Shown here one piece after another: positions 1 through 50,455 of a DNA stretch of 64,000 bases. Position 1 is the first letter of the stretch. Each line of letters begins with the position of its first letter. The notes beneath the pieces were generated by a model, which was not told where the DNA came from, made no database searches, and worked only from the letters and a program-made list of their open reading frames with translations. Source of the DNA: a virus (taxonomy: Duplodnaviria; Caudoviricetes); IMG/VR virus record IMGVR_UViG_3300045747_000505; one strand, written 5' to 3'. The position numbers were made by a program, and so were the translations under genes.

Positions 1-1
1 T

Positions 2-475
2 GGTGATTTTGCTGGTGTCAAGCTCTATCGTCGCAAGGGTCAAATCTTTGCGATTGATCCACACGACAACAATGATCTTGTGTATTGGGTCAAAACGGAT
101 GTTCGCAAGATCAACGTCATTGGCACCACGGCAATTTGCCAACGGGCTCTCTGGCGAAATACAAACAATGCCAGCACCAATGGATTGCCTGAACACATTT
201 TCTTCGATGTCTGGTTGAAAACCTATGATGCCATCGTCACAGATGGAATGCAAACAACTGGTGGGAAGAACTTCTGGTTTCGTCGAGTCAAAGACGCTTT
301 CGCTCTTGGGCACAGCGTGTATTACGCTCGCGAGCTGTCACCTCAAACCGTTGTTAAGCTAAAATCATTTGCTGAATTTCAGCGATTGGCGCTTGACGGC
401 ACAATCTGGGGAACAACCCCAGACTACAAACATCGCTTGGTGGTAATCACCACCAAGACTTTAGACGAACGATAG
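2..475 (+). CDS. GNAT-like phage protein, 5'-truncated by window edge
   Basis: Frame open from nt 2. Motif IVTDGMQTTGGKNFW is shared with the 4332 and 7237 paralogs. Confidence 0.6.
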   Translation, partial: GDFAGVKLYRRKGQIFAIDPHDNNDLVYWVKTDVRKINVIGTTAICQRALWRNTNNASTNGLPEHIFFDVWLKTYDAIVTDGMQTTGGKNFWFRRVKDAFALGHSVYYARELSPQTVVKLKSFAEFQRLALDGTIWGTTPDYKHRLVVITTKTLDER

Positions 476-484
476 GAATACGAT

Positions 485-558
485 AGCGGGATGGGTGTGG
501 TGGCTGCATAAAAGGCTCATAACCTTTAGGTACTGTTCGATTCAGGATCCCGCTTCCA
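485..558 (+). tRNA. trnM: tRNA-Met/Ile2 (CAT), atypical D-arm
   Basis: AGCGGGA/TCCCGCT acceptor, AAAGG-CTCATAA-CCTTT arm, TTCGA loop, CCA. Confidence 0.8.
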
Positions 559-566
559 GTTTTTAT

Positions 567-638
567 GGGCTTGCTCGATGGGCGAGGAAACGCACTTGCA
601 ATGCGATGCTTGGGGATCGTTACCCCACAGGTCCACCA
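567..638 (+). tRNA. trnA: tRNA-Ala (TGC), atypical T-loop
   Basis: G3:U70, A73, CCA, loop CTTGCAA, T-loop ATCGTTA. Confidence 0.7.
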
Positions 639-644
639 GTTAAT

Positions 645-732
645 GGAGCAATGGTAGAGTGGTCTATTGCGTCGCACTTGAAATGCGAAGGGTCGAAAGG
701 CCCCGTGGGTTCGAATCCTACTTGCTCCGCCA
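645..732 (+). tRNA. trnS: tRNA-Ser (TGA)
   Basis: Long variable arm, loop CTTGAAA, GTTCGAATCC, CCA. Confidence 0.95.
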
Positions 733-795
733 ATTCAAAGAACAACGGTCATCGTCTGCAGCGGTGATTGAAGTGCCGGGAGTAATTGCCCCGGC

Positions 796-920
796 GACCC
801 GCGTGGTGTAACGGTCAGCACGAAAAAGGCATAGGGTTCGAGTCCCTTACTGTCCGCAGGGACAGGCTAGGTTGCACTGAGTATCAGTTCAGAGTTCGAG
901 TCTCTGACGCAATGGGTCCA
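796..920 (+). ncRNA. tRNA-like RNA with a D-arm, two T-arms and no anticodon arm
   Basis: GACCC/GGGTC ends, D-arm GTGTAACGGTCAGCAC, two TTCGAGT hairpins. Confidence 0.45.
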
Positions 921-983
921 CATATTCGAACAACGGCGCCTATCGCGAAGGGCGTCTATAGAAATACCTAGCACAAATTCAAT

Positions 984-1058
984 GGGGGTGTGGTATAGCT
1001 GGGAACACGCTAGCCTTGCACGCTTGAGTCGGGAGTTCGACCCTCCCCACCTCCACCA
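984..1058 (+). tRNA. trnA: tRNA-Ala (TGC)
   Basis: G3:U70, loop CTTGCAC, CCA. Confidence 0.9.
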
Positions 1059-1074
1059 ATTTAGAAAGAGTAAT

Positions 1075-1159
1075 GCGGATATGGGGGAATTGGTAGACCC
1101 GCCAGGTTGAGGGCCTGGTTCTGAAAAGAGTGAGAGTTCGAGTCTCTCTATCCGCACCA
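1075..1159 (+). tRNA. trnL: tRNA-Leu (GAG)
   Basis: CCAGG-TTGAGGG-CCTGG arm, long variable arm, CCA. Confidence 0.92.
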
Positions 1160-1163
1160 TATT

Positions 1164-1221
1164 GGAAACCGTTGTTGAGGGTTATCAGGTTATGAAACAA
1201 TCCTCTTCGCCTTTTGTTTCC
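1164..1221 (+). ncRNA. Repeated structured RNA motif, copy A
   Basis: GGAAAC/GTTTCC closing stem, CG-TTGTT-GAGGG-TTATC...CCTC-TTCG-CCTTTT. Confidence 0.6.
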
Positions 1222-1237
1222 ACCATGTGTTCATGGT

Positions 1238-1315
1238 CAGAGCGTAGTGTAGCCTGGCCAACATCCTCGGTTTGGAACCGATAGATCGCGAGTTCGAATC
1301 TCGCCGCTCTGACCA
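1238..1315 (+). tRNA. trnP: tRNA-Pro (TGG)
   Basis: C1:G72, A73, loop TTTGGAA, CCA. Confidence 0.93.
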
Positions 1316-1328
1316 TGAACATACATTC

Positions 1329-1439
1329 GCAAACCGCTTGTTGAAGGTTATCTTACAGATGAATGGTTCGACTCCATGGGTGACTTCGGTTGCCCTAAGC
1401 TCCGGTCGGGGAGCGACTCCTTCAGCGTCTTTTGTTTGC
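1329..1439 (+). ncRNA. Repeated structured RNA motif, copy B (internal T-loop hairpin)
   Basis: GCAAAC/GTTTGC, CGC-TTGT-TGAAGG-TTATC...CCTTCA-GCG-TCTTTT. Confidence 0.6.
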
Positions 1440-1450
1440 ATAAATAAGCA

Positions 1451-2089
1451 ATGCTACTTCAAGAAATCAAAGGCTCCGGCGAGAAGAATTCCCAGTTCGG
1501 AACGAAGTGGGTTCATCGTGGTGTCGAAAACAAAAAGGTAGCAGATGCCGATCTTCAACAGCACTTGGATGCTGGATGGGAAATCGGAAGACGAATCAAA
1601 GCCGAATTGGCGCCACGAAAGAAGTATCGCACGGTTTGTTCTAAGTGTGATGCTGAGTTCGAGTCGAAACGGAATGACAGATCATTGTGTAATGCCTGCA
1701 CCAAGATTGCCGCAGGCAATAAAGGCGGCGAAACAATGCGGGAACGAGGGTCACACGCTGGATGGCATAACCGCAAAGGCGAACGGAGTTATCCCGAGCG
1801 ATACTTTGAGGATGTCTTTGACAAGGAAGGAATCAATGGTTGGCAACCTGATAAAAAGGTTGGTCGTTGGTTCATAGACTTCGCATTCAGTGATAAAATG
1901 ATCGCTGTAGAAATTGATGGACGTCAGCATAAGATTCAAGATCGTGCTGAGTCTGACAAATTGAAGGACGAATATCTCCGATCGCAAGGTTGGAAGGTGA
2001 TTCGAATAGATTGGTTCAACCCAAGGACACAATCTGGCAAAGATAGACTTCATCCGCAGGTGAAAGCCTTATTGGATGTGTTGAGATAA
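1451..2089 (+). CDS. Homing-type endonuclease, Vsr/DUF559 nuclease domain
   Basis: FIDFAF-x-IAVEIDGRQH...DEYLRSQGWKVIRI. N-terminal NSQFGTKW module shared with the GIY-YIG ORFs. Confidence 0.8.
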   Translation: MLLQEIKGSGEKNSQFGTKWVHRGVENKKVADADLQQHLDAGWEIGRRIKAELAPRKKYRTVCSKCDAEFESKRNDRSLCNACTKIAAGNKGGETMRERGSHAGWHNRKGERSYPERYFEDVFDKEGINGWQPDKKVGRWFIDFAFSDKMIAVEIDGRQHKIQDRAESDKLKDEYLRSQGWKVIRIDWFNPRTQSGKDRLHPQVKALLDVLR

Positions 2090-2090
2090 T

Positions 2091-2166
2091 CAGGGTTTAG
2101 TGTAGTCTGGTAACACGACTGCTTTGGGAGCAGTTATCGAGAGTTCAAATCCCTCATCCCTGACCA
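2091..2166 (+). tRNA. trnP: tRNA-Pro (TGG)
   Basis: ACTGC-TTTGGGA-GCAGT arm, C1:G72, CCA. Confidence 0.9.
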
Positions 2167-2187
2167 TTTTCTGAAAGGGAGGTCAGC

Positions 2188-2415
2188 ATGAAACGCATGC
2201 TCATTGTACTGGCAACGCTCATTCTTTCTGGGTGCGTCGTTGCTCCATACCCTAGAACTTACAGGTCAGAACCCGTGGTCGTTTACTCAGGCTTCTATTG
2301 GGAGCCGAGCGTTTCGCTTTGGTTCCGATTCGGACCTCGCGGTGAACGGTATTATCAGCCACACGGCTTCGACCCTCGTGGTCACCGCGAACATCGTCAT
2401 GGTGGACGCGATTGA
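2188..2415 (+). CDS. Small lipoprotein
   Basis: GGGAGG RBS, signal peptide with lipobox LSGC. Confidence 0.7.
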   Translation: MKRMLIVLATLILSGCVVAPYPRTYRSEPVVVYSGFYWEPSVSLWFRFGPRGERYYQPHGFDPRGHREHRHGGRD

Positions 2416-2628
2416 AAAACAGTCTTCGTCCTGACAATGACGAAGTGGTGGAGTCTGACGTGTAACCACGTCGGTCCTAGCGCAAGTGGCCAAGCACTCT
2501 AATAAGTGCCACCACGCGCAACACGCATGGCGAGTGTCTTTCGCCTAAAGGTACTGGAAATGGGTCTCCCAAGCTCAGCCGGTAAAAGTACCACGCGCTG
2601 TGACAGCCTAGTCAGCGCAGCATTCAAT

Positions 2629-2704
2629 GCGGCGTTAATTCAGTTGGTAGAATACGTGCTTGCCAAGCACGATGTCGCCGGTTCGAACCCGGCACGCCGC
2701 TCCA
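2629..2704 (+). tRNA. trnG: tRNA-Gly (GCC)
   Basis: Loop TTGCCAA, U73, CCA. Confidence 0.96.
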
Positions 2705-2793
2705 ATCTTCGGTCGCAAGACCAAAGCGCCTTCCGAGCGATACGGCTGTCCAATCGGCAACGGAGAGGACGTAAGCTAACAGTTGCACCTTAT

Positions 2794-2866
2794 GCGGGAT
2801 TTTTCCTGGGAGAAGACTCAGCCTTCCAAGCTGATGGACTCGGTTCGAATCCGGGATCCCGCTCCA
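2794..2866 (+). tRNA. trnG: tRNA-Gly (TCC), atypical D-arm
   Basis: TCAGC-CTTCCAA-GCTGA arm, U73, CCA. Confidence 0.88.
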
Positions 2867-2875
2867 GAATACAAT

Positions 2876-2965
2876 GGGTCTGTAGCTCAGCTGGCAGAGC
2901 AGTTGGCTAGGCGCGTAAGCGCTGAAACCGACGAGTCGGATGTTCGAATCATCCCAGACCCACCA
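2876..2965 (+). tRNA. tRNA body with a 21-nt anticodon loop (14-nt GNRA hairpin insertion)
   Basis: Perfect acceptor, D and T arms and CCA. Loop CTA-GGCGC-GTAA-GCGCT-GAAA. Confidence 0.7.
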
Positions 2966-2967
2966 AT

Positions 2968-3098
2968 GTGGAAGTAGCTCAGTTGGTAGAGCGGCCGCCT
3001 CGTCGAAAAACACCCGTGAACGCCCCTTGTTGCGTAAGCAACCGATTGTGAATGGTTATCCAAGCAGCTCGTCGTTGGTTCGAATCCAGCCTTCCACC
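2968..3098 (+). tRNA. tRNA-Gly-like gene with a 58-nt anticodon-loop insertion (permuted motif, copy C)
   Basis: GTGGAAG/CTTCCAC acceptor, canonical D and T arms, loop starts CT and ends TCCAA, no encoded CCA. Confidence 0.65.
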
Positions 3099-3145
3099 CC
3101 GCCTTTTTTACCGATAAATAGAAGTGATTCAACAGGAGCACTTCT

Positions 3146-3796
3146 ATGGTTCAAGCAAGCAGACGCAAGCACCACTACATTTACAAAATTACGCAGGTTG
3201 ATACCGGCAGATTCTACATTGGGATGCACTCAACAGATAATCTCAACGACGAGTATTTCGGTTCTGGGAAAATCATAACCGCTTCGATTAAGAAGCACGG
3301 CAAAGATAAGTTCATCAAAGAAATTCTTGAGCACCTACCATCCCGCGAAGCACTGAAACTTCGAGAGGAGACTATTGTGAATGCCGAGTTAATCAATGAT
3401 GCCCTTTGTATGAATCTTCAGATCGGAGGTGGCGGCGGTTTTAGTAATGACGCGCACCAACGTCGATGCTCAGAAGTTGGTAAGGCACGCTTCCTTGAAA
3501 AGCTAAAGGACCCAGAGTTTGCTGCAACCTATGCAAAGACCCATAAAATTTCTACACGAAAACGTATTGACGAGGCGTGTGAAGAGTTTGGTTTTTGGCA
3601 CAACGGCTTCGTAGGCAAAAGACATAGCGCCGAATCAAAAGCCAAAATAGGCAAAGGCAATTCATTAGCACAACTTGGTGAGAGAAACTCCCAATTTGGA
3701 ACGAAATGGATGCATTTCGATAAACAAAATGTAAAAGTTAAACCGCACGAAGTGAATGATTTCCTTCAGCGTGGTTTCAACTTTGGACGAACATAG
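3146..3796 (+). CDS. GIY-YIG homing endonuclease (SegB-like)
   Basis: HYIYKITQVDTGRFYIGMHST...YFGSG; lies in tRNA cluster; TAAATA upstream. Confidence 0.9.
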   Translation: MVQASRRKHHYIYKITQVDTGRFYIGMHSTDNLNDEYFGSGKIITASIKKHGKDKFIKEILEHLPSREALKLREETIVNAELINDALCMNLQIGGGGGFSNDAHQRRCSEVGKARFLEKLKDPEFAATYAKTHKISTRKRIDEACEEFGFWHNGFVGKRHSAESKAKIGKGNSLAQLGERNSQFGTKWMHFDKQNVKVKPHEVNDFLQRGFNFGRT

Positions 3797-4115
3797 AGCA
3801 TCGGCGGAAGCACGATGCGGGAATTTAGTTTCGCACTGTTCCCACCCAGTTTCCTCGTGCAGCCGATAGCTGTGTTTTTCGAGTGGTTTTTCCTAAAAAC
3901 CACCCCGCGGCTCGTGGTGAAGAGTGGGAACTTCAGTTGATTCCCGGGTTGGCCTGTCAGCCAACAGATACGAATACTCTTACTGACGTGGCGATAGATG
4001 TGTAACCCCATCAAGTCGCTTGAGTTGCTGATTGATGAACGCGAGAAGTAATCAGCTAGTCGACGAGTAGAAACTCGTAAGTCGTTGAGTGCCGGAATCA
4101 CTTGGCGCAGTAATT
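3797..4115 (+). ncRNA. Candidate ~320-nt multi-hairpin ncRNA
   Basis: At least six helices read by eye; no credible + strand ORF. Confidence 0.4.
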
Positions 4116-4119
4116 CAAT

Positions 4120-4205
4120 GCGGGTGTGCTGTAATTGGTAGCCAGCGTACGTTCAGACCGTACGGTCCTTAGGACATGCAGGTTCGATGCCTGTCACCCG
4201 CACCA
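4120..4205 (+). tRNA. trnL: tRNA-Leu (CAG)
   Basis: GTACG-TTCAGAC-CGTAC arm, long variable arm, CCA. Confidence 0.92.
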
Positions 4206-4213
4206 AACAAAAT

Positions 4214-4299
4214 GCGTCTGTGCTGCAATTGGTAGACAGCGTCGGTTGAGAACCGGCGGTCCCTAGGACATGTGGGTTCGATGCCCATCAGACGCACCA
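4214..4299 (+). tRNA. trnL: tRNA-Leu (GAG)
   Basis: Loop TTGAGAA, long variable arm, CCA. Confidence 0.92.
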
Positions 4300-4300
4300 C

Positions 4301-4307
4301 ATAAATA
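4301..4307 (+). promoter_or_regulatory. T4-type late promoter (one example of about 30 TAAATA sites)
   Basis: ATAAATA upstream of + genes (about 3114, 4301, 6809, 11809, 12891, 19299, 22541, 26446, 32810, 34430, 42782, 45691, 52654, 57178, 57798, 61374, 62208, 63620). Reverse-complement sites lie upstream of all four - strand genes (about 14727, 18411, 37077, 57790). Confidence 0.8.
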
Positions 4308-4331
4308 CTCCTGCCTTAGTAGGAGCTTGGA

Positions 4332-5015
4332 ATGATTCTTGCGGACTTGAAGCCATCGACATCTCGCACGACGTTTATTGAAACGTGGCTTTGTGAAATG
4401 CCAAGTGGTCTTGGCACATTCGAAACTTTCGAGACGCTGGAGTATTCAATCAAGGACTTTCTGAAGTACGGCATCAAGGTTGTCAACGTCAATGGCGTCA
4501 ACAAGATTGATGCTGGCGACAAGGTCTTCTACTGGTTCGAAGCCAACGGGAGCATTCAGCTCGCAACGGAGCTTCATAAAAAATCAGAAGGGCTGGTCGT
4601 CAGTCTTACTGGTAAGAATCCAAAGCTTCGAGGAAGAGCACCATACGCAAGCGAGCTGTACTCTGTCGTGCTAAAGGACTCTGGTAAAAACATTCGACTG
4701 ATGTCTGACACGCAGCTAAGCGACGAAGGTCTTGCTCTTTGGAAGAAGCTCGTTAAGCAGGGCCATAAGGTTTCTGTTTATGACGCAGCCAATCCAGGCA
4801 AATCATTCAAGTCATTTGAGACGCCAGCCGAGCTTGATGCGTTCTTCAAAGATGGCGATACGAATTTCAAGCGTTTTCAATATGTTCTCTCAGAAGAGCT
4901 GCTGAGCTACTGCTCGATGCGAGCAAGCTTTAGACTTCGTTTGCTGAGAGAAACGGTTGGTCATGATTTGACTGACGCACCAAATCCCGTAAGGGTGCCG
5001 TCGAGCTTGGCTTGA
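4332..5015 (+). CDS. GNAT-like phage protein
   Basis: YASELY...LMSDTQLSDEGLALWKKL; late promoter at about 4301. Confidence 0.6.
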   Translation: MILADLKPSTSRTTFIETWLCEMPSGLGTFETFETLEYSIKDFLKYGIKVVNVNGVNKIDAGDKVFYWFEANGSIQLATELHKKSEGLVVSLTGKNPKLRGRAPYASELYSVVLKDSGKNIRLMSDTQLSDEGLALWKKLVKQGHKVSVYDAANPGKSFKSFETPAELDAFFKDGDTNFKRFQYVLSEELLSYCSMRASFRLRLLRETVGHDLTDAPNPVRVPSSLA

Positions 5016-5333
5016 CGTCTAGCTAAACTGAGAAGCGACAAGAAGCTCATGCGCAGGCCGGCTGTGAGTGAAAGCCTTAGGGAAGGGGCTAGCGAGAAGG
5101 GTCAAAGCCCTTCAACACCCATTTGGTAAGAGTATGATGTGCTCTTACCAAATGGTCAAGATGGCTTAGCGGCTACACACGTGTCGCGACGGATGGCTCT
5201 GTCGGTCGTGGCTTTGCGAAGACAATGTGAAGCTCCCAAGAGTAAGATGAGCATGAGGGAGCACTTGACCATTCATAATTTGCCACCCTACCCAAGGGGT
5301 CCGAGAGAGTGGTTGGAAGCATCTCGGCGAGTA

Positions 5334-5405
5334 TTTCACGTAGCTCAATAGGCAGCAGCACCGCTTAGTATGGCGGGGATGCGGGTTCGAGCCCCGTCGT
5401 GTAAT
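5334..5405 (+). pseudogene. Degenerate tRNA (AGT-like loop)
   Basis: D-arm TAGCTCAATAGGCAGCAGC and GGTTCGAGCCC T-arm; irregular anticodon loop; no CCA. Confidence 0.5.
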
Positions 5406-5423
5406 CGTGGCATTCAATTCCAT

Positions 5424-5501
5424 CTGGGCGTAGTGTAGTCTGGCCAACATCCTCGGTCCGGAACCGATAGATCGCAGGTTCGAATCCTGCCGCCCAGACC
5501 A
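5424..5501 (+). tRNA. trnP: tRNA-Pro (CGG)
   Basis: Loop TCCGGAA, C1:G72, CCA; close paralog of 1238. Confidence 0.93.
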
Positions 5502-5673
5502 ATTCAAGAAAACGGGACCAAGGCTGCGAGGTAAGCTCTTGCTGCCAAGGTCCCGGGTTGTAAATATCCTGAGACGTGCCGATACACCATCGTAGGCCGT
5601 CCCAACGTACACGATTGCTCTATGGTCGCCGCAAGCGTCACGTGAGCGATAGGACAGGAAGGTGCAACCATCT

Positions 5674-5711
5674 ATTCAATTGCAACTTGAACATTCAATT
5701 GCAACTTCAAC
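5674..5711. repeat. 19-bp tandem repeat upstream of release factor
   Basis: ATTCAATTGCAACTTGAAC then ATTCAATTGCAACTTCAAC. Confidence 0.8.
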
Positions 5712-5722
5712 TGGAGGACAAC

Positions 5723-6391
5723 ATGAAGTGTATACTTGAAGTGCGCGCCGCGGAAGGCGGCGATGATGCGAAGCTCTTCGCAAAGGATCTTGCTGCGGCC
5801 TACGGTCGCATGTTCAGCCGCTTCGGCTGAAAGCATCGCCTGCTAGATTCTCGTCAAGGCGAGATCTCGTTAGAGGTCAGCGGCGAGGATTTGACAGGCT
5901 TGCGACAAGAGGCTGGTGGTCATCGCATCATGCGGGTTCCACCAACCGAGCGTAAGGGTCGCGTTCACACTTCAACGGTGACGGTCGCCGTGCTCGACGA
6001 GGCGAAGGCCTCCAGCATCGAGTTCAACGACCGTGACTTTCGCGTCGAGTGGTACTCTGGCACCGGTGCTGGCGGACAACACCGCAACAAGCATCAGAAC
6101 TCGTGTCGCATCACGCATCGCTCAGGAGCGGTGGCTACGGCTCAGTGTCGTAGTCGCGAGAACTCTCTGGCCGAGGCGACGATTGCGATACTGGCACGGT
6201 TGAATGGAGCGGAGCAAGCGTCATCAGCGCTGGCACGGTCGCTCGACCGAAAACAACAAACTGGCAGTGGTGAGCGTGGTGATAAAATACGCACCTACCG
6301 CTTTCAAGACAACTCGGTCAAGGACCATCGCACCAACAACAGCGCGGCTCTCGACATTGTCCTCAACGGCAAGTTCGATCTGCTTTGGTAA
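5723..6391 (+). CDS. RF1-like peptide chain release factor lacking domain 1, with in-frame TGA at codon 36
   Basis: GGAGGA RBS; LEVRAAEGGDDAKLF, GGHRIMRVPPTE (PxT), GAGGQHRNK (GGQ), GERGDKIRTY. TGA at 5828-5830, then the frame stays open to 6391. Confidence 0.85.
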
Positions 6392-6397
6392 ATAGCC

Positions 6398-6486
6398 GCG
6401 GGCTTGGCGAAATTGGTAGACGCAACGGGCTTAAACCCCGTGGCCTTTCACGAGGCGTGCGGGTTCGATGCCCGCAGTCCGCACCA
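6398..6486 (+). tRNA. trnL: tRNA-Leu (TAA)
   Basis: ACGGG-CTTAAAC-CCCGT arm, CCA. Confidence 0.94.
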
Positions 6487-6502
6487 ACATCTGGAGACAA
6501 CA

Positions 6503-6703
6503 ATGAACAAGATCATCGCAGCCATTCTGCTCGCGCTAGTAGCAATCATCATCGCCGGCCTCGTCTACGCGCCAAAGCGTCACACGCCGGTTGGCTCGCT
6601 TGAAGCCACCGTCGAATGCAAGGACGGCCACAAGTGGATTCGCAATCGCGACGGCAAGCTCATCGAGTGGATAACGGCCAACGGCACTAAGCCGCCGTGC
6701 TGA
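6503..6703 (+). CDS. Small membrane-anchored protein
   Basis: GGAG RBS, N-terminal TM helix. Confidence 0.65.
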   Translation: MNKIIAAILLALVAIIIAGLVYAPKRHTPVGSLEATVECKDGHKWIRNRDGKLIEWITANGTKPPC

Positions 6704-6708
6704 TATCT

Positions 6709-6783
6709 GGGCCGTTAGCTCACTGGGTAGAGCGTTCCCCTCATAAGGGACGGGGGAGGGTCCGATTCCCTCACGGCCTACCA
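6709..6783 (+). tRNA. tRNA-Ile2/Met (CAT)
   Basis: Loop CTCATAA, CCA. Confidence 0.88.
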
Positions 6784-6836
6784 ACCTGCATAAAGACAGC
6801 ACCGGTTGATAAATAGATGATACAATGAAATTCAAT

Positions 6837-6916
6837 GTAGAGATGGCGGAGCATGGTCAAACGCAACGCGCTGCAAACGCGTACAATCCCGGGTTCGAAT
6901 CCCGGTCTCTACTCCA
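6837..6916 (+). tRNA. trnC: tRNA-Cys (GCA)
   Basis: ACGCG-CTGCAAA-CGCGT arm, U73, CCA. Confidence 0.9.
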
Positions 6917-6922
6917 AACAAT

Positions 6923-7076
6923 GCCCTTGTAGCTCAGTGGTAGAGCAATCGCCTTTTCAGGAGGGTTTATGACCCTCCTACCCTGCAGATCCTTCAAACG
7001 GTCTGCAGTCTAGGAGAGTTACATCTCTGAAGAGTAAGCGATAGGTCGACAGTTCAATTCTAGTCCTAGGGCACCA
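6923..7076 (+). tRNA. tRNA (probably Thr-TGT) with a 78-nt structured anticodon-loop insertion
   Basis: GCCCTTG acceptor, ATCGC/GCGAT anticodon stem enclosing 85 nt, T-arm, CCA. Confidence 0.7.
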
Positions 7077-7087
7077 CTCTCTCCGAA

Positions 7088-7228
7088 CCTCAATGAAAGA
7101 GTCAACCGCTTGATTGTCGGTTATCTTCACTTCGTAAAACTGAACCGAGGACGTTCGATTCGTCCGCGCCCTTTTTGGTAAAGGCGGGCAAACGTCGACG
7201 TCGCCTTTCGTTGACTCTTTCGTTGAGG
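7088..7228 (+). ncRNA. Repeated structured RNA motif, copy G
   Basis: 19-bp closing stem, AAC-CGC-TTGA-TTGTCGG-TTATC, internal GGACG-TTCGATT-CGTCC. Confidence 0.65.
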
Positions 7229-7236
7229 CTCCAATC

Positions 7237-7872
7237 ATGAAATTACAAGATCTGTTCGAAATGCCGCTATTCATTGACAAGGAATTTCCTACGTTGAAGA
7301 ATTCGCGCATGCTTAGCGCCAACACTATCGAAGATGACTACGATGTCCTTTGGACTGGGAAGCGAAATGAAGCTTCGATCTCTGTGATCATGAAGAAAAA
7401 CAAATCAGTCGCCTTCATCGGTCATTTGGTCGAGCGAACTGACAAAGTCATTTGCCTTCAGCTTGATGGTGGCCTTGAGTTTAAAGATCGCAAGGACTTC
7501 TCCTGGATGCACGACATCAAGGTTGAAGCCAGAAACGCGCTTCAGATTGATGGTATTCAACTTGAAGAAAGCTTTCAAAAGCAAGGCCTGGCGTCGTTAC
7601 TATACCTTGAAATCGTTCGGTACGGCTACGTACTCATTTCAGATACAACACAGTATCGAGGCGGACGCAAACTTTGGGAGTCTCTTGCGAAGAGGCAAGA
7701 AGATCAAGGTGTAAAGATTTATGTTGTCGACAACGGCAAGGTCATCCTTGATGATGCTAATGAGCCGCTTGAGTACGACGGCTCAAACATTCCAGCAGAC
7801 CAAATATGGTCTACCTCAACTAACATTGAAGACAGCAAGAAGCACGTGCTACTTGTGTTGAAATCATTATGA
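7237..7872 (+). CDS. GNAT-family acetyltransferase-like protein
   Basis: FQKQGLASLLY (acetyl-CoA motif A), LISDTTQYRGGRKLW. Confidence 0.7.
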   Translation: MKLQDLFEMPLFIDKEFPTLKNSRMLSANTIEDDYDVLWTGKRNEASISVIMKKNKSVAFIGHLVERTDKVICLQLDGGLEFKDRKDFSWMHDIKVEARNALQIDGIQLEESFQKQGLASLLYLEIVRYGYVLISDTTQYRGGRKLWESLAKRQEDQGVKIYVVDNGKVILDDANEPLEYDGSNIPADQIWSTSTNIEDSKKHVLLVLKSL

Positions 7873-8162
7873 ACAACAAACTCCAAGCCGGCGATCTCGC
7901 CATCATCATCAAGTCGATGCTCGGCAAGAACATCGGCCGCATCGTGGAGTGCGTGCTCGTTGAGTCCGTGCTTCACCCTGACTTCGGCGCCATCTGGCTC
8001 GTTCGATCGTCTCGCAAGGACCTCGTCGATGAGAGCGGTGGCGTTGGCGATACCTTTCACGTGCCACAAGACTGGCTGCGCAAGATCCCGAACGATCCGC
8101 TGCCAGACGATGAGGACGCGTGGGAGCTCGATCCGACCAAGGAGTTGGAGCTCGTCAAGTAA
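7869..8162 (+). CDS. Hypothetical protein
   Basis: Coupled start, phage-like codon usage. Confidence 0.7.
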   Translation: MNNKLQAGDLAIIIKSMLGKNIGRIVECVLVESVLHPDFGAIWLVRSSRKDLVDESGGVGDTFHVPQDWLRKIPNDPLPDDEDAWELDPTKELELVK

Positions 8163-8166
8163 CAAA

Positions 8167-8253
8167 GCGGGTGTGGCGAAATTGGTAGACGCACCAGGTT
8201 TAGGTCCTGACGCCCTCACGGGCATGTCGGTTCGAGTCCGACCACCCGCACCA
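8167..8253 (+). tRNA. trnL: tRNA-Leu (TAG)
   Basis: Loop TTTAGGT, long variable arm, CCA. Confidence 0.94.
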
Positions 8254-8302
8254 ATTACTTCGAATCAGTCTAAATACTTAGGTTCAACACCAAGGAGTAT
8301 TC

Positions 8303-9118
8303 ATGGACTGGTTCATCTCATTCAAAAACTGGCTTCGTCGCTTGTTTCTCAACAAGCCGCTGGGCACTGGGCGCATCTACGCTTGGAAGCCTGACGTCCC
8401 AGACCATCGCGACCGGCTCTTCAGCCTGCCAATTCCGGCCAAGCTCCCAGACCACGTTGACCCACTCGGCGCCAATGACGTCGTAGAGGACCAAGGTCAA
8501 CTTGGGTCCTGCACTGGGCACGCCACCACGACCGCCGTTGAAATCATCACTGGCGCTCGTACGCAGTACTCTCGTCTGATGACGTACTACAACGGTCGTC
8601 TCATCGAGAACAATGTTGCCAACGACGATGGCGCGGTCATTCGCGACGTCATCAAGGGTGTTCAGAAGTATGGCATCTCTCGCGAGAGCCTTTGGCCGTA
8701 CGTCGAAGCTAAGTTCGCAAAGAAGCCAACAGCCAAGTCCTACACCGACGCGCTTGGTCTGCGCACCAAGATTGCCTCGTACGAGCGCATCACCACGCTT
8801 GAGCAGGTCAAGACGGCGCTTGCCGCTGGTCTGCCAGTGGTCTTTGGCTTCTCCGTTCCAGAGTACTTCGAGAGCGCTGAGGTTGCTCGCACTGGTTGGG
8901 TTCGCTTTCCAACGAGCAAGGACAAGATGGTTGGTGGACACGCGGTCTGCGCCATTGGCTACGATGACCGTAAGTCAGCGCCAATTCCATACGTCTGGGT
9001 TCGCAACTCATGGAGCTCCGCTTGGGGTCTGAAGGGCAACTTCCGTATGGACCAGCAGTGGTTCACCGACCCGACTCGCCTCGTCGATGACATGTGGGTC
9101 ATCCATCCAAAGGTCTGA
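8303..9118 (+). CDS. Papain-like cysteine peptidase (C1)
   Basis: DQGQLGSCTG, GGHAVCAIGY, VRNSW catalytic motifs. Confidence 0.92.
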   Translation: MDWFISFKNWLRRLFLNKPLGTGRIYAWKPDVPDHRDRLFSLPIPAKLPDHVDPLGANDVVEDQGQLGSCTGHATTTAVEIITGARTQYSRLMTYYNGRLIENNVANDDGAVIRDVIKGVQKYGISRESLWPYVEAKFAKKPTAKSYTDALGLRTKIASYERITTLEQVKTALAAGLPVVFGFSVPEYFESAEVARTGWVRFPTSKDKMVGGHAVCAIGYDDRKSAPIPYVWVRNSWSSAWGLKGNFRMDQQWFTDPTRLVDDMWVIHPKV

Positions 9119-9180
9119 ACCTAGGATTTCAAGTTCGCAGACGGTGGGAGTTGAGGTATAATGGCTCTCACCAATCCTGT

Positions 9181-9256
9181 TCCCCGATAGCTCAGTTGGT
9201 AGAGCGCCGGACTGTTAATCCGTAGGTCCCTGGTTCGAGCCCAGGTCGGGGAGCCA
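9181..9256 (+). tRNA. trnN: tRNA-Asn (GTT)
   Basis: Canonical; loop CTGTTAA, G73, CCA. Confidence 0.97.
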
Positions 9257-9262
9257 ACCATC

Positions 9263-9688
9263 ATGAAAATCCAAGGCTTTCAAGGCGACTACTGGTTTCT
9301 GTCTAACTTCGCTTTGGTGAAGGTCGACCTTGACGGTGTGACCTACCCTAGCGTTGAGCACGCCTACGTGGCGGCAAAGACGTTGGACCCAGAGCTGCGC
9401 GCGAAGGTGGCTCGGTTCACCAAGCCAGGTGACATCAAGCGCTTCGGCAGAACGCTCAAAATTCGTTCCGACTGGGAGCGGATCAAGGTCGATGTGATGA
9501 CCGATCTGCTCATTCAGAAGTTTGCTCAAGAACCGTTTCGCACGAACCTGTTAAATACAGGTGACGCGGACATCGAAGAAACAAACTGGTGGGGCGATCG
9601 ATTCTGGGGAGTGTGCGACGGCGAAGGCCTCAACACTCTCGGCGAGCTCCTAATGTGGGTGCGCGATCAATTGGAAGGACAGGTATGA
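9263..9688 (+). CDS. NADAR (YbiA-like) family protein
   Basis: FLSNF...TYPSVEHAYVAAK...KFAQ...WGDRFWG...GLNTLGELLM. Confidence 0.9.
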   Translation: MKIQGFQGDYWFLSNFALVKVDLDGVTYPSVEHAYVAAKTLDPELRAKVARFTKPGDIKRFGRTLKIRSDWERIKVDVMTDLLIQKFAQEPFRTNLLNTGDADIEETNWWGDRFWGVCDGEGLNTLGELLMWVRDQLEGQV

Positions 9689-9846
9689 GCAAGACAGTTC
9701 GCGGTGGTAAGGGTCCTGGCTACGAGTACTGGAGCAAGCGTCCGAACAAGTACGCTTCGCCCGGCAAGTCGTCGAAGATCATTACCCATCGAGTCGAGCG
9801 GCGTCAAAGCAAGGACGTCGTTCGCAGTGAGGTCAAGGACCTCTAA
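9685..9846 (+). CDS. Small basic hypothetical protein
   Basis: MSKTVRGGKGPGYEYWSKRP, coupled to NADAR. Confidence 0.6.
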   Translation: MSKTVRGGKGPGYEYWSKRPNKYASPGKSSKIITHRVERRQSKDVVRSEVKDL

Positions 9847-9974
9847 AGAATACGAAGGGACCGACTTAAAAGCGTCGGGCTGATTGAAGTGCCTAAGTGG
9901 TTAGCGGGGTCTCACCTTCTCCGCTTTCACGACGCTCGGTCAGTAAGGAAGGTGACTAGCCCTTCACAATCAAT

Positions 9975-10066
9975 GGAGCCGTGGTAGAGCGGTCTAATAC
10001 GTCGGTTTGCTAAACCGAAGGTCGGAGTAATCCGGCCCGTGGGTTCGAATCCCACCGGCTCCTCCA
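9975..10066 (+). tRNA. trnS: tRNA-Ser (GCT)
   Basis: Loop TTGCTAA, long variable arm, CCA. Confidence 0.95.
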
Positions 10067-10196
10067 AACGAAAGACAGAATGAATAGCGTGATTTGCATG
10101 GCTCGGTTTATGGATGACTTTGGCAACAGCATCGTGCCGGCCTACATGCCATACGAGACCTTTCTGGCTCGCTACTACTTTTGCAAAAGCATCTGA

Positions 10197-10273
10197 GCCC
10201 AACTACGCTAATTGGCAACGCGACCTCTCTCAAAAGGAGATGTTTCTCAGTTCGAATCTGAGGTTGGGCACCA
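10197..10273 (+). tRNA. trnL: tRNA-Leu (CAA) with short variable arm
   Basis: GCCCAAC/GTTGGGC acceptor, loop CTCAAAA, CCA. Confidence 0.75.
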
Positions 10274-10279
10274 AACAAT

Positions 10280-10371
10280 GGAGACGTGGTAGAGTGGCCT
10301 ATTGCGACTGCCTCGAAAGCAGTAGGTCGTGGTAACGCGGCCCGTGAGTTCGAATCTCACCGTCTCCTCCA
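10280..10371 (+). tRNA. trnS: tRNA-Ser (CGA)
   Basis: Loop CTCGAAA, long variable arm, CCA. Confidence 0.94.
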
Positions 10372-10462
10372 TCCTAAGTAAATAGAGCCCGGTGCCAGTG
10401 AAGTGCAGTATAATCCGCGACTGGTCACCGATCAGACTCCCTCAACTAACTGGACTACACCT

Positions 10463-10654
10463 ATGACACGCTCACTCCTCGCCGCTCTCGCTCTGACCTT
10501 TGCCGCTGCCTCCTTCGCCAACACGCTGCCCGCCGCAGCTTCGGCCCCGGCTCCTGCCGCTTCGAAGGCTCACAAGCACGTCAAGCACCACGCTGCTCAC
10601 AAGCACGCCAAGGCACACAAGGCTGCTCCGGCCGCCTCTGCTGCCTCGAAGTAA
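10463..10654 (+). CDS. Secreted Ala/Lys/His-rich small protein
   Basis: Signal peptide ending ASFA; HKHVKHHAAHKH repeats. Confidence 0.7.
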   Translation: MTRSLLAALALTFAAASFANTLPAAASAPAPAASKAHKHVKHHAAHKHAKAHKAAPAASAASK

Positions 10655-10658
10655 GATC

Positions 10659-11501
10659 GTGATTCGACGGCACAGCGATCTGGTCACGTACGCGACCACG
10701 GTCGTGCTGATGACCGTCGCCTTTCTGATCGCTCGATCAGGCCTCTACTCCTGCGATGATCCGATCGCCTACTGGATCGGCGTCGTGGGAGGCTCGTTGA
10801 TGTTGGTTCTGCTGCTCTATCCGCTGCGCAAGTACGTGCGGTGGCTTTGGGTGCAGCGACTTGGCAAGATGAAGGCATGGCTTCGCATTCACATGATCAT
10901 CGGCATTCTGGCTCCCACGTTGATTCTGCTTCACTGCACGTTTCGAACTGGGTCCGTCAACGCCGCCATCGCTCTGTGGAGCATGATCATCGTGATGTTC
11001 AGCGGCTTCATCGGTCGCTTTCTGTACAGCCACACGAAGAACGGCCTGCGATCAGAGCAGCGCCGACTTGAGACCTTCAAGAAGCTAGCTCGACTAGATG
11101 ACGAGGTCGATTCAACCCTGTGGTTCTCTCCCTATGGTCGTCGGCTGTTGGACATGTTCGAAGAGCGCGCGCTCGATGCTGAGCACGCTGCACTCCACTG
11201 GGCGAAGCTGCTGATGTTCCTACCGGCTGAGAGTTGGATGGTTCGCTTTCAAGCGCAGCACTCCATCAACGAAGAGCTCGAGATCATCGCCAAGCGCCTC
11301 CACTGGTCCTATCCAGAGCACAGTGAGCACATCGCTACAGCCAAGCACATTGTGGTAGAATACCTCACGTGCATCATGCGAGTGGCGCTGTACCGTGCTT
11401 GGGACAAGCTGTTCAGCTACTGGCACGTCGCTCACGTTCCATTCGTGTTCATGCTCGTCTTCGCCAGCATCACGCACATCATCGCCGTTCACTTCTACTG
11501 A
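10659..11501 (+). CDS. Multi-pass membrane protein, cytochrome b / ferric-reductase-like
   Basis: About 5 TM helices with His in LRIHM, LLHC, WHVAHVP, THIIAVH. Confidence 0.7.
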   Translation: MIRRHSDLVTYATTVVLMTVAFLIARSGLYSCDDPIAYWIGVVGGSLMLVLLLYPLRKYVRWLWVQRLGKMKAWLRIHMIIGILAPTLILLHCTFRTGSVNAAIALWSMIIVMFSGFIGRFLYSHTKNGLRSEQRRLETFKKLARLDDEVDSTLWFSPYGRRLLDMFEERALDAEHAALHWAKLLMFLPAESWMVRFQAQHSINEELEIIAKRLHWSYPEHSEHIATAKHIVVEYLTCIMRVALYRAWDKLFSYWHVAHVPFVFMLVFASITHIIAVHFY

Positions 11502-11503
11502 TC

Positions 11504-11803
11504 ATGATCATCACACCGCGTCCTGTCTACGACGGCATCGTCGAGGGTCTCGAACCCTTTGAGCATCACACCGACGAGAACATCGAGGAAATTCTGAGCA
11601 TTCTGTCCGATCGGGCGCACGCTCACGGACATGAGCGCGATGCTCAAGTCAAGGCGGAGGGTGGGTCTGGTGCGCCGTTCGCCTACCAAGCGACGACGAA
11701 CTGGAAGGCGGTCGAGATCATTGTGCAGCTCGAGAAGCAAGTTGAAGAGCTTCAGCGAGCGCTGAACTGCGCTAAGGCTGAGCTCGAGCAAGAGCTCAGC
11801 TAA
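11504..11803 (+). CDS. Hypothetical protein
   Basis: ORF with phage codon usage. Confidence 0.6.
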   Translation: MIITPRPVYDGIVEGLEPFEHHTDENIEEILSILSDRAHAHGHERDAQVKAEGGSGAPFAYQATTNWKAVEIIVQLEKQVEELQRALNCAKAELEQELS

Positions 11804-11823
11804 GAACGATAAATAGAATCACT

Positions 11824-11915
11824 GGAGCCGTGGCAGAGCGGCCTATCGCATCACCTTGGAAAGGTGAAGATCGTGGCAACACGGTCCGTGGGTTCGAATC
11901 CCACCGGCTCCTCCA
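11824..11915 (+). tRNA. trnS: tRNA-Ser (GGA)
   Basis: TCACC-TTGGAAA-GGTGA arm, CCA. Confidence 0.95.
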
Positions 11916-12170
11916 GTACAGTAGAGAATCACACGCCGGCCCACCATTGCGACTGCTACGAGTTCATGACTCCCGCTCTTGCTTAACAACGCGAACATAG
12001 TCTTCGGACAGGCTTCGTCACCAGCACCGTCAATCGGCCGAACGACTAAGTGCAATAAGGGCGCTGTGTCTTCTCTGCCTACGCTGAACCTAAACAATGC
12101 CTTACACAAGGTGTGAAGTTGTGGTACTATACGTAAATAGACATTACTCCACGTTAACTATAGGCATCAC

Positions 12171-12848
12171 ATGAACCTTCGCACCCTCATCGCTTCTGCT
12201 GCTCTTGCTCTATCGGTCGGTGCGCACGCTGAATCTGGTACGCTTACCTTCAGCGACTTCGTTCACAACGCTGACTTCAATGCGTCAACGCTCTACCACG
12301 GCTTCAGCTTCGGCTCGGCCTGGTTTCCAAACCCAAGCACCGAGATTCGCGACCCGTACCTCGCGCTGAGCACCAATGGCGGCGCGCGCAGCGTCTTCGT
12401 CGAGCGAGCTGACCACACGCCGTTCAACCTCGATAGCTTCAACTACGCTGGTCGCAGTGACACTGGCCTCGCCTACCTCGTCATGTACAACGGTGGCACC
12501 ACGGTGTTCAGCGGCACCACGGACAACAACGGCAAGCTTCAGTTCAAGACCCTCGCTCCGGCGCCGACTGGCGTTCCTGGCGGTCAGACGTTCAGCGTCG
12601 CTGCTACGTCGGGCTACACCGGACAAATCACTGGCTTCAGCTTCGCCTTCAAGGCAGCTGGCGGTGGCTTCGGCGATGGCAGCGATTCGCTGCAGTTTGC
12701 CTTTGACACGATGAAGTACAGCAACGCGACAGCCGCAGCGGCTCTGCCGCCAGTTACGCCGGCCGTGCCTGAACCGCAGACCTATGCGCTGATTCTCGCT
12801 GGTCTTGGCGTCCTCGTCTTCAAGGGACGTCGTCAGCGCCGAACCTAA
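12171..12848 (+). CDS. PEP-CTERM sorting-domain surface protein
   Basis: Signal peptide; C-terminal VPEPQTYALILAGLGVLVFKGRRQRR. Confidence 0.92.
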   Translation: MNLRTLIASAALALSVGAHAESGTLTFSDFVHNADFNASTLYHGFSFGSAWFPNPSTEIRDPYLALSTNGGARSVFVERADHTPFNLDSFNYAGRSDTGLAYLVMYNGGTTVFSGTTDNNGKLQFKTLAPAPTGVPGGQTFSVAATSGYTGQITGFSFAFKAAGGGFGDGSDSLQFAFDTMKYSNATAAAALPPVTPAVPEPQTYALILAGLGVLVFKGRRQRRT

Positions 12849-12954
12849 ATACGAGTGGACCTGGAAAGGTCCTTCAGGGTTAGAATCAGGATAAATACAA
12901 ACGTCGCAACGGAGCGACACAACTTTATCACTTTCACCTTTGAAGGATTTCCAA

Positions 12955-14016
12955 ATGAAGAACTACATTCTTTTCGTCCGCGACCACTCTGCCTCCATGG
13001 GCAGCCTCGCTCAAGCCGCCAAGCGCGACTTCAACGAGCAACTGGCGTCAATTCAGGCGTCAGCAACCTCCCTCGATCAAGAAACCCTTGTCTCCGTCCT
13101 GACCATCTGCGTCGGCCGTGATTCCAAGATCGGGCGCGAGGTCGTGAACACCGACGTTCGTCGCGTTCAATCGATCGCTCACTACGCGACCGAAGGCCAC
13201 TCCACTCCGATGATCAAGGCCGTCTTCGACGGCATCGAGCTGCTCGAAGCCCTGCCCGACTACAACGATCCTGAAGTCTCCTTCCTCGTCGTCACCACGA
13301 CCGACGGACAAGAGAACTGCGACCGTCATCGTGGTCGTGAGCTCGCCGCCAAGATCCGTACGCTCGTCGGCACCGATCGCTGGACCTTCGCCTTCCGCGT
13401 GCCGAAGCAAGGCGGCGTCAAGGACCTCGCAAGCCTCGGCATTCTGCAAGCGCCGGTCAGCATCTTCGAGTGGGACCTGAACTCACGTGGTGTCGAGGTC
13501 TCGACGCAAGCCAACGTGCAAGCGTTCGACGCCTACTTCGCCGAGCGTGCAACTGGCAAGCGCGCCACGTCACGCTTCTACGCGAATGCTGCCGACGTGT
13601 CGGTGGACGAAGCTCGCAAGAGCCTCATCGACGTGTCGAGCGAGGTCACCCTGTTCCCGGTCGCCGCATGCGATGCTGGCACGCTGATCCGTCCGTTCGT
13701 CGAAGCCAAGCTGGGCGAGGCGATGGTTCGCGGTGGTGCGTTCTACCAGCTCGTCAAGCTCGAGCCGAAGGTGCAAGCCAACAAGCGCATCGCCATTCGC
13801 GACAAGTCGACCGGCACCGTGTTCGCTGGTGACGCCGCTCGTCAGATGCTGGCGCTGCCAACCATCGGCACCGTTCGTCTGGCTCCCGATGACACCGGCG
13901 ATTGGGACATTTTTATCCAAAGCACTTCGGTCAATCGCAAGCTTGATCCCAACACCCAGTTGATGTATTGGAAGGGTGTTGGTAAGGCATTCAAGGAAGG
14001 TCCGTCGGCAACCTGA
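12955..14016 (+). CDS. vWA-domain protein
   Basis: DHSASM (MIDAS DxSxS), STP, TTDGQEN. Confidence 0.8.
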   Translation: MKNYILFVRDHSASMGSLAQAAKRDFNEQLASIQASATSLDQETLVSVLTICVGRDSKIGREVVNTDVRRVQSIAHYATEGHSTPMIKAVFDGIELLEALPDYNDPEVSFLVVTTTDGQENCDRHRGRELAAKIRTLVGTDRWTFAFRVPKQGGVKDLASLGILQAPVSIFEWDLNSRGVEVSTQANVQAFDAYFAERATGKRATSRFYANAADVSVDEARKSLIDVSSEVTLFPVAACDAGTLIRPFVEAKLGEAMVRGGAFYQLVKLEPKVQANKRIAIRDKSTGTVFAGDAARQMLALPTIGTVRLAPDDTGDWDIFIQSTSVNRKLDPNTQLMYWKGVGKAFKEGPSAT

Positions 14017-49745: not shown

Positions 49746-50019
49746 GACTGTTACACTTAAAAGTGTGCAGACCGCCAAAACCGTGTTATAGTACATCTAT
49801 CGACACGAACACAGCAATGTGTTCAGGTTGAGACGAGAACGGTCTCCGCCGAACCTGAAAATTGTCTTGTACGAAGCTCAGGAACGTGTTATAGTTCAAC
49901 TCTGGTGATGCGACAAGTGCGCTGATCGCTGATCCTTGAAACAACCTTCCGCGAAATCTTCGGAAATCGCTAAATAGAAACATCGCCGCAAGGCACTGGA
50001 ACCAACTTAGGAAACCATC

Positions 50020-50154
50020 GTGAACTTCACTCGCAACACTTTCAAAACAACGGAGATGCATTGGCAGCAACGCCAACACGTCACCGTGCGCTTTGAGATT
50101 AAGCGAGACGAGAATGATACGACCCTCCCAGGTCAGGAGAAGCTAGCAGCGTAA
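50020..50154 (+). CDS. Candidate 44-aa leader peptide of tRNA cluster 2
   Basis: AGGA RBS, GTG start, ends EKLAA-stop; overlapping alternative hairpins. Confidence 0.35.
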   Translation: MNFTRNTFKTTEMHWQQRQHVTVRFEIKRDENDTTLPGQEKLAA

Positions 50155-50448: not shown

Positions 50449-50455
50449 ATTCAAT

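Follow-up and report, generated by a model that had tools for sequence, protein, structure and literature searches.

Viral tRNA genes with a conserved anticodon-arm insertion that resembles a circularly permuted Y RNA stem

The window, by which we mean the whole 64,000-nucleotide stretch of viral DNA analyzed here, looks like a huge phage. Its genes include 46 tRNAs, GIY-YIG and DUF559 nucleases, an RF-1-domain protein, a CCA-adding enzyme, an RNA ligase and UvrD, and no close relatives of it were found among GenBank phages by DNA or by protein. An RF-1/PCRF-domain protein (5891–6391) is encoded within the tRNA island, and a vWA-domain protein (12940–14016) directly follows the island. Window DNA was detected in pond and wetland metagenomes, and two such runs yielded contigs identical to the window, each over part of the stretch. 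An 8.8-kb contig (L318) has the same sequence and reaches about 4 kb further upstream, where it carries more tRNAs and no TROVE gene. None of the RNA sequencing runs matched the window stretch. The features on which the argument turns are collected in Table 1.

Table 1. Positions of armed tRNAs A and B, their parts, and associated genes in the window
Feature	Position	Strand	Basis or detail
tRNA-framed RNA gene A, 131 nt	2968–3098	+	Rfam tRNA model and direct sequence reading
Acceptor stem of A, GTGGAAG / CTTCCAC	2968–2974 / 3091–3097		7 bp (7/7 paired)
D arm of A, GCTC-AGTTGGTA-GAGC	2977–2992		4/4 paired
Anticodon stem of A, GCCGC / GCAGC	2994–2998 / 3064–3068		5 bp, one C·A mismatch
A-rich linker of A, before the arm	2999–3011
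Y-RNA-like arm module in the anticodon loop of A	3008–3060	+	Covariance model R1, 37.9 bits, E 4e-8
P1 5' strand of A (ACcCGUGAAC)	3012–3021	+	Model alignment, family covariation
Distal helix (P2) of A	3027–3045	+	Sequence: UU 3027–3028, GUUGC 3029–3033, GUAA loop 3034–3037, GCAAC 3038–3042, bulged C 3043, GA 3044–3045
P1 3' strand GUGAAUGGU (3048–3056) and conserved linker UAUC (3057–3060) of A	3048–3060	+	Most conserved block of the arm family
CAA linker of A, after the arm	3061–3063
Variable loop of A	3069–3073
T arm of A, GTTGG-TTCGAAT-CCAGC	3074–3090		5/5 paired
GIY-YIG homing-endonuclease cassette, 700 bp (ORF 3146–3796)	3098–3797	+	Pfam SegE_GIY-YIG
CCA-adding enzyme / poly(A) polymerase family protein	27720–28838	+	Pfam PolyA_pol head domain, E 2.6e-19
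Phage RNA ligase	43273–44328	+	Pfam RNA_ligase PF09414, E 2e-24
Armed tRNA B, CAU-type loop AUCAUCC, encoded A-CCA	51462–51587	+	Rfam tRNA, 38.3 bits
Arm module of B, inserted after nt 27 of the anticodon stem	51489–51540		R1, 56.4 bits

The Rfam tRNA model (RF00005) matches A with 45.1 bits (gathering score 29, E 2e-6) at all 71 model positions, and its alignment places a 62-nt insertion within the anticodon loop. An earlier note on this DNA had described the acceptor, D and T arms as intact, and on reading the sequence all three are perfectly paired. The note was also right that, in place of a 7-nt anticodon loop, the anticodon stem encloses 65 nt (2999–3063) that start with CT and end with TCCAA; the C·A mismatch in this stem went unmentioned. 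A is not among the 46 tRNAs called by ARAGORN in the window. The same program calls Gly(GCC) (2629–2704) and Gly(TCC) (2794–2866) directly upstream of A and no Gly(CCC) within the window, in agreement with what had been reported. Removal of 58 nt does produce the loops CT-TCC-AA or CT-CCC-AA that were proposed, but the conclusion that both make A a tRNA-Gly is uncertain: three junctions are possible, giving the anticodons UCC, CCC or CGC, and the acceptor stem has U2:A71 together with A or C at position 73. The identity set of bacterial tRNA-Gly comprises C2:G71 and U73. Because the junction is ambiguous and the acceptor stem is unlike this set, the label 'Gly' can, on sequence grounds, be taken for A as nominal only.

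In the window, position 73 of A is C and no CCA follows it. The GIY-YIG cassette starts right after the acceptor stem. In a contig from a related strain (metagenome run X3), position 3097 is joined to 3798 with ACCAGAACATTT between them, and the tRNA ends in ...CTTCCAC-A-CCA. Since this contig lacks the cassette and has ACCAGAACATTT at its place, the native end of A is A73-CCA, replaced in the window; C73 and the absence of CCA are thus due to insertion of the cassette after the acceptor stem. Both features had been seen in the earlier note, where they were said to point, under certain outcomes, to a decaying pseudogene. The features stand, and the X3 contig provides a concrete cause for them. 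The CCA-adding enzyme encoded in the window could provide the CCA that A is missing. Two more free-standing GIY-YIG genes (50836–51471 and 52665–53309) lie among the window tRNAs; the first is without a Pfam match and has an N-terminus like that of the endonuclease at 3098–3797.

When the insert of A was compared with the window by blastn, a second copy was found at 51507–51540, identical at 31 of 34 positions. It lies in an armed tRNA, B, that ARAGORN did not call either and whose T arm equals that of A over 18 nt. The stop codon of the GIY-YIG gene at 50836–51471 falls within the first 10 nt of B. The core TTGTGAATGGTTATC was used to retrieve tRNA-embedded copies from IMG/VR, and the core together with a T-loop pattern gave 74 metagenome loci, about 50 of them genuine. 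A covariance model built from 37 copies (R1) finds exactly two copies in the window, those of A and B, and 130 copies overall (75 distinct) in 67 sources, each located in the anticodon arm of a tRNA frame; many of these are divergent and lack the exact core. The match of the A insert to this model establishes as real what the earlier note had called a permuted motif. A is the most degenerate copy of the family. A search of 185,579 cellular genomes with the T-loop pattern returned 11 matches, all of which were chance matches according to the covariance model, and no copy; no further phage-type copies were found in IMG/VR. We found no description in the literature of tRNAs with a Y-like arm, and Rfam has no family for them.

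Most carriers of the arm are giant-virus contigs, some with GVMAG names, and a few are phage-like. The giant-virus loci contain genes of the RING, WD40, MORN and SNF2 families, and their tRNAs lack an encoded CCA and carry the T loop AUCGAAA, which we take to be of the eukaryotic initiator-tRNA type. The phage-like carriers (the window, L266/L274, L292 and L312) encode CCA and have UUCGAAU T loops, with a class II frame in the case of Tyr. An identical 14-nt block is found in phage-like contigs and in those of giant viruses. Intact isoacceptors with another body accompany the armed tRNAs, as seen for Ile-UAU and Tyr in the contigs compared and for the adjacent Gly-UCC in the window, so the armed ones are not apparently needed for decoding. 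In five giant-virus contigs (L252, L275, L284, L288 and L013), as many as nine tRNA(CAU) genes, whose T loops read AUCGAAA, form an array; these contigs hold at least four armed tRNAs each, paralogues with anticodons one step from CAU (UAU, CAC, UAC, AAC). Of the words sampled from one giant-virus tRNA array (L275:1-2371), 5–14% occur in lake, river and freshwater metatranscriptomes, and RNA evidence on retention or removal of the arm can probably be obtained from such data.

The window contains other tRNA-like genes of unusual form. The gene at 2876–2965 (+ strand) is an otherwise perfect tRNA (Rfam 50 bits, CCA encoded) with a 21-nt anticodon loop that holds a mini-hairpin, GCGC-GUAA-GCGC; it does not match the arm model, and removal of 14 nt would leave a UGA or AGA anticodon. 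The insert in the anticodon loop of a 150-nt tRNA at 6923–7072 (+ strand; Rfam 32 bits) is of another kind and contains three hairpins. In the related contig of run X3, 6944–7033 (90 nt) is absent and 13 other letters stand in its place, so that this tRNA exists with and without the insert; an ORF at 7237–7872 is absent from that contig as well. Its exons would form Thr(UGU), which is otherwise missing from the window, as the sequence suggests. The tRNA that ARAGORN calls at 5334–5406 (+ strand; Rfam tRNA 35.8 bits) has an anticodon of four bases (agta) and is a possible frameshift suppressor. T-arm-like GTTCGA hairpins also occur outside called tRNAs, at 836, 894, 1366, 7153, 52058, 54559–54627 and 57186–57256. 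The hairpin region at 54559–54627 scores 28.9 bits as a tRNA and that at 57186–57256 is weakly like tRNA-Sec or mascRNA; the hairpins may mark further tRNA-like genes of unusual form.

Across the family, the arm begins with an A-rich linker, usually (U/C)AAAAC, followed by the P1 5' strand AYCGUUYRC. From there a pyrimidine-rich joining strand, with UU at its end, leads into P2, a helix of 4–5 bp with a variable loop that is often GNRA. The 3' side consists of a bulged C or U, G(A), 2–3 nt, the P1 3' strand GUGAAUGGU and the linker UAUC. In the folded arm, a 9-bp helix leads through a pyrimidine-rich internal loop to a G·U pair and a bulged pyrimidine, beyond which lie a helix of 4–5 bp and its loop. 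This fold is strongly backed by covariation. Paired bases fill 96.8% of the cells compared to 85.1% in shuffles, and the covariation score is reached by 0 of 500 shuffles. Changes of both partners are seen at seven pairs, among them a P1 pair that occurs as U-A in 48 distinct copies and as C-G in 20. When the partner strand was slid by 1–3 columns as a control, pairing fell to 17–55%. P1 of A contains one extra C and a tandem G·A/A·G mismatch, and the family fold of A is thermodynamically poor (-25.5 kcal/mol versus -37.7 kcal/mol for the minimum free energy structure). P1 does not form in the minimum free energy structures of either A or B, so support for this helix comes from covariation and not from energy.

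Chen et al. [quoted passage not shown] In the arm family, the sequence of P2 and its flanks is UU-GACC...GGUC-[C/U]-GA in many copies from giant viruses, compared with UU-GUUGC...GCAAC-C-GA in A. All 70 distinct copies with a placeable distal helix have the bulged pyrimidine followed by a G whose partner is the U immediately 5' of the helix, and among the 75 distinct copies GUC[C/U]GA is found in 35 and UGAC in 67. When the 3' half of the arm was aligned with the 5' strand of human Y RNAs, whose sequences were those printed in two papers, the mean z was 2.5; A gave a z of 4.9, with 0 of 200 shuffles as good, and a control with the strands swapped gave a z of about -0.3. The alignment spans GGUCCGA...GUG...GGUUAUC, where the arm family reads GGUC[C/U]GA…GUG…GGUUAUC. 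The arm therefore resembles, at the level of sequence, the bulged helix of Y RNAs, but it is capped by a loop and circularly permuted. Although each motif is short, the combination of the bulged pyrimidine, the G·U pair, GGUC[C/U]GA/UUGAC, the internal loop and the upper helix in the right polarity is specific.

The metazoan Y RNAs hY1, hY3, hY4 and hY5 share with the arm GGUC-C-GA / UU-GACC, the internal loop, the GUG upper stem and GGUUAUC, on the same strand and at the same place. The arm differs from them in being embedded in a tRNA, permuted and loop-capped, with a lower stem of only 4–5 bp, and its 5' half, which corresponds to the 3' strand of Y RNA, has only UUGAC in common with them. 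Its handle is nearer to the metazoan GGUCCGA type than to the bacterial GNCGAA type, and the CGAA motif is not kept in phage-type copies (CCGAU in A, CCGCU in B). The architecture resembles that of YrlA (RF02553), in which a tRNA-like body (T, D and an acceptor-type stem) is joined to a long stem with a Ro60-binding-type motif, the stem sitting where the arm of A leaves the anticodon stem. In a Paenibacillus locus of the Rfam YrlA alignment, CGGCGA, an internal loop and a second helix form a comparable layout. The succession of lower helix, bulge, internal loop and upper helix, with an effector module at the end, agrees with that of a Y RNA stem; the tRNA stands where the effector module would be, like the tRNA-like domain of YrlA. 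Both YrlA-type RNAs and armed tRNAs are found in tRNA-rich regions of phages and have links to RNA repair and quality control. However, in YrlA the termini lie in the handle and the acceptor is closed, whereas armed tRNAs have an open acceptor (carrying CCA in B) and a handle capped by a loop (GUAA in A). Armed tRNAs, unlike YrlA, also keep the anticodon arm, and no adjacent Ro60 gene was found. The Rfam models Y_RNA (RF00019) and YrlA gave only spurious YrlA matches of 20–21 bits across junctions of adjacent tRNAs; the permuted order would defeat both models. We thus describe the arm as a circularly permuted, tRNA-embedded Y-like handle, for which YrlA and Y RNAs, together with the predicted non-canonical tRNA introns of giant viruses, are the nearest published kinds.

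A TROVE/Ro60 protein was sought among the window ORFs tested and none was found: those of at least 300 aa belong to other families or have no assignment, and the protein at 12940–14016 has a vWA domain only. Nor was one found among ORFs of at least 330 aa in the flanks of the family loci. Conversely, six TROVE-bearing viral contigs with tRNA clusters, retrieved with a Paenibacillus Rsr alignment, have no arm within 10 kb, a sample too small and biased to be taken as a negative.

We favor the reading, at a probability of roughly 0.4, that the arm is a retained docking arm of the Ro60 type and a permuted relative of YrlA. Viruses would graft the arm module into the anticodon arm of tRNA frames, and A would encode an RNA shaped like a tRNA whose anticodon loop is replaced by a structured arm, about 53 nt long, with its linkers; the arm would be a permanent part of the RNA and not be excised. 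The handle would present, in order, a helix, the bulged pyrimidine with the G·U pair, the pyrimidine-rich internal loop and the 9-bp helix, with a loop where Y RNAs have their termini. We infer that it docks a ring protein of the Ro60/Rsr type, supplied by the host or encoded elsewhere in the huge phage, while the tRNA body would act as a second, tRNA-mimicking (effector) module, as in YrlA. On this reading the gene would yield an RNA that serves as adaptor or decoy instead of a decoding tRNA-Gly, with a putative role in tRNA quality control or repair or in phage–host conflict over tRNA cleavage. Ro60 is present in both bacteria and eukaryotes, and we know of no tRNA-splicing machinery common to the hosts of phages and of giant viruses. 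The 14-nt block common to phage-like and giant-virus contigs suggests a partner shared by bacteria and eukaryotes, as Ro60 is. Points against this reading are the missing TROVE gene in the ORFs searched, the lack of CGAA in phage-type copies, the poor energy of the family fold in A and the recovery of a canonical anticodon arm upon deletion of the arm, as an intron would predict.

The main alternative is that the arm is a small ribozyme-free tRNA intron, which we consider conceivable but rather unlikely. Proteins would cut both junctions, guided by P1, the linkers (A-rich 5', UAUC 3') and the tRNA fold, and a ligase, here the one encoded at 43273–44328, would seal the halves to give a decoding tRNA, Gly(UCC/CCC) in the case of A. 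This fits the finding that 82 of 91 copies (distinct with flanks included) regain a 5-bp stem and a 7-nt loop once the arm is deleted, with canonical loops such as CUUAUAA, CUCAUAA, CUGUAAA, CUACGAA and others, which leaves room for protein-mediated splicing. It also fits the covariation of the exon-1 tail with the 3' strand (for example CCU/GGG versus UCU/GGA) and the retention, in phage-type copies, of an encoded CCA and, in the Tyr frame, of a long variable arm. The phage encodes a CCA-adding enzyme and an RNA ligase, the latter possibly the sealing enzyme if the arm is excised and otherwise an enzyme of tRNA repair. In addition, the related-strain allele of the tRNA at 6923–7072 without about 90 nt of its insert indicates that removable inserts exist here. 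Introns at non-canonical positions, from 27/28 to 41/42, have been predicted in tRNAs of giant viruses (PMC11946776), a further point in favor. Like archaeal and eukaryal bulge-helix-bulge (BHB) introns, including these non-canonical ones, the arm is a short insert at variable positions of the anticodon arm whose deletion gives a canonical tRNA.

Several observations weigh against excision. Unlike BHB introns, the arm has a strongly conserved internal sequence, occurs also in phage-like contigs and lacks the BHB motif: inspection of A and family members found no two 3-nt bulges with a 4-bp helix, as the earlier note had indicated, and, whichever of the three junctions is assumed, no complementarity between the A-rich linker at the 5' end of the presumed intron and the start of exon 2. 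The arm lies between nt 29 and 30 in 58 copies, at 26/27 to 28/29 in others and inside the loop in A and L260/L288; its 3' boundary follows UAUC in 73 copies, UAU in six and UA in three, and the 5' linker measures 2–14 nt. Since these distances vary among copies, the position of the junctions follows from the tRNA fold, not from a constant spacing to the core, and a fixed splice rule is ruled out. No endonuclease candidate is known, and to our knowledge bacteria have no tRNA-splicing endonuclease. The near identity of the arm in phages and giant viruses, whose hosts have no common splicing pathway, argues in the same direction, as does the redundancy of armed copies with intact isoacceptors. 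No insert-less allele of any armed tRNA was found in the loci and runs examined: the comparison of orthologous loci proposed in the earlier note gave none for A in four metagenome runs, and none was found for the giant-virus UAU type in IMG/VR or in the family loci examined.

Self-splicing and self-cleaving RNAs were also considered. Introns of groups I and II have a catalytic core (P3–P9 or domains I–VI) and measure about 200 nt or more. As in the group I introns of bacterial and phage tRNAs, the anticodon loop of a bacterial virus is interrupted in A and homing endonuclease genes are near; but with 53–58 nt compared to a minimum of about 200 nt, no core and no Rfam match, the arm is of another kind, and the GIY-YIG gene beside A is free-standing and outside the insert. 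A group I or group II intron is thus rejected for the 58-nt insert, which matches no Rfam intron at E up to 10, and the earlier judgment that it is too short for either holds. Small self-cleaving ribozymes (hammerhead, twister, pistol, hatchet, HDV-like and others) gave no match with Rfam covariance models, and a likeness to hammerhead or hairpin ribozymes is unsupported by sequence or Rfam. These searches covered 2300–3300 at E up to 10 and 1–12500, 49800–58200 and six family loci at E up to 5; in the window and the family loci they returned only tRNA and spurious weak matches.

Altogether, a docking arm accounts somewhat better than a new intron for the strong conservation of the arm, which far exceeds what is usual for protein-spliced tRNA introns, for its occurrence in both phages and giant viruses and for its likeness to the stem of Y RNAs. 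The earlier note had suggested a new class of small tRNA intron or a decoy for anticodon nucleases; the discrete conserved element and the restoration of the anticodon arm upon its deletion bear this out in part, and the retained docking arm, which is close to the suggested decoy, fits somewhat better than the intron.

It is also conceivable, though improbable in our view, that A itself is a decaying chimera in which the 5' part of a tRNA was joined to the 3' two-thirds of a B-like armed tRNA and the native 3' end was lost to the endonuclease cassette, so that A would be functionless even if the family is functional. A agrees with B in the arm's 3' half (31/34) and throughout the T arm (18/18), whereas the two have different D arms and acceptor stems. 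A also has the lowest model score among clearly tRNA-embedded copies (37.9 bits versus 56 to 77), a P1 with one additional base and a tandem mismatch, a C·A in the anticodon stem and a GIY-YIG cassette in place of its A73-CCA end, and unlike most copies it carries the arm in the loop. However, the acceptor, D and T arms of A are perfectly paired (7/7, 4/4 and 5/5) and its 14-nt arm core is intact. Tandem G·A mismatches form a stable motif, so that those in P1 do not by themselves speak for decay. Exact, if partial, matches to the window in two pond or wetland metagenome runs, the CCA-adding enzyme encoded in the window and the same loop-type insertion in L260/L288 likewise count against the chimera.

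Slightly less probable still is a reading that combines docking with excision, in which the Y-like handle would mark a pre-tRNA for a machine of Ro60, nuclease and RNA ligase that excises the arm and reseals the anticodon arm. Such a ribozyme-free splicing or licensing pathway would be common to huge phages and giant viruses and would let the virus hold spare tRNAs in reserve, inert and resistant to anticodon nucleases, until the need arises. The machine would be of the type known from rsr-yrlBA-rtcBA RNA-repair operons. Least likely of all is a retained arm with a partner other than Ro60, serving as a decoy or trap for a host anticodon nuclease or tRNA-modifying enzyme or as a regulatory switch and resembling Y RNAs by convergence: the lack of a Ro60 gene near any copy inspected, the loss of CGAA in phage-type copies, the shortness of the motifs behind the Y RNA likeness and anticodon loops conserved as though read by something would agree with it, but the combined Y RNA motifs in the correct strand polarity are specific and none of our results points to an alternative partner.

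Tools for tRNA detection miss armed tRNAs, as seen with ARAGORN, which skipped both copies in the window, and inventories of viral tRNAs are therefore incomplete. Should the arm instead be excised, it would represent the first protein-dependent tRNA intron family of bacterial viruses. If the preferred reading of a Ro60-type handle is true, the arm would be a new, permuted Y RNA architecture, one in which whole tRNAs, with an anticodon arm and a CCA end, are wired to the Ro60 quality-control ring, and it would offer a compact natural scaffold for tethering proteins to tRNAs. The physiological RNA targets of Ro60 are still unclear. A handle of this type, present in viruses of bacteria and of eukaryotes, would link phage tRNA arsenals, RNA repair and the biology of Ro60.
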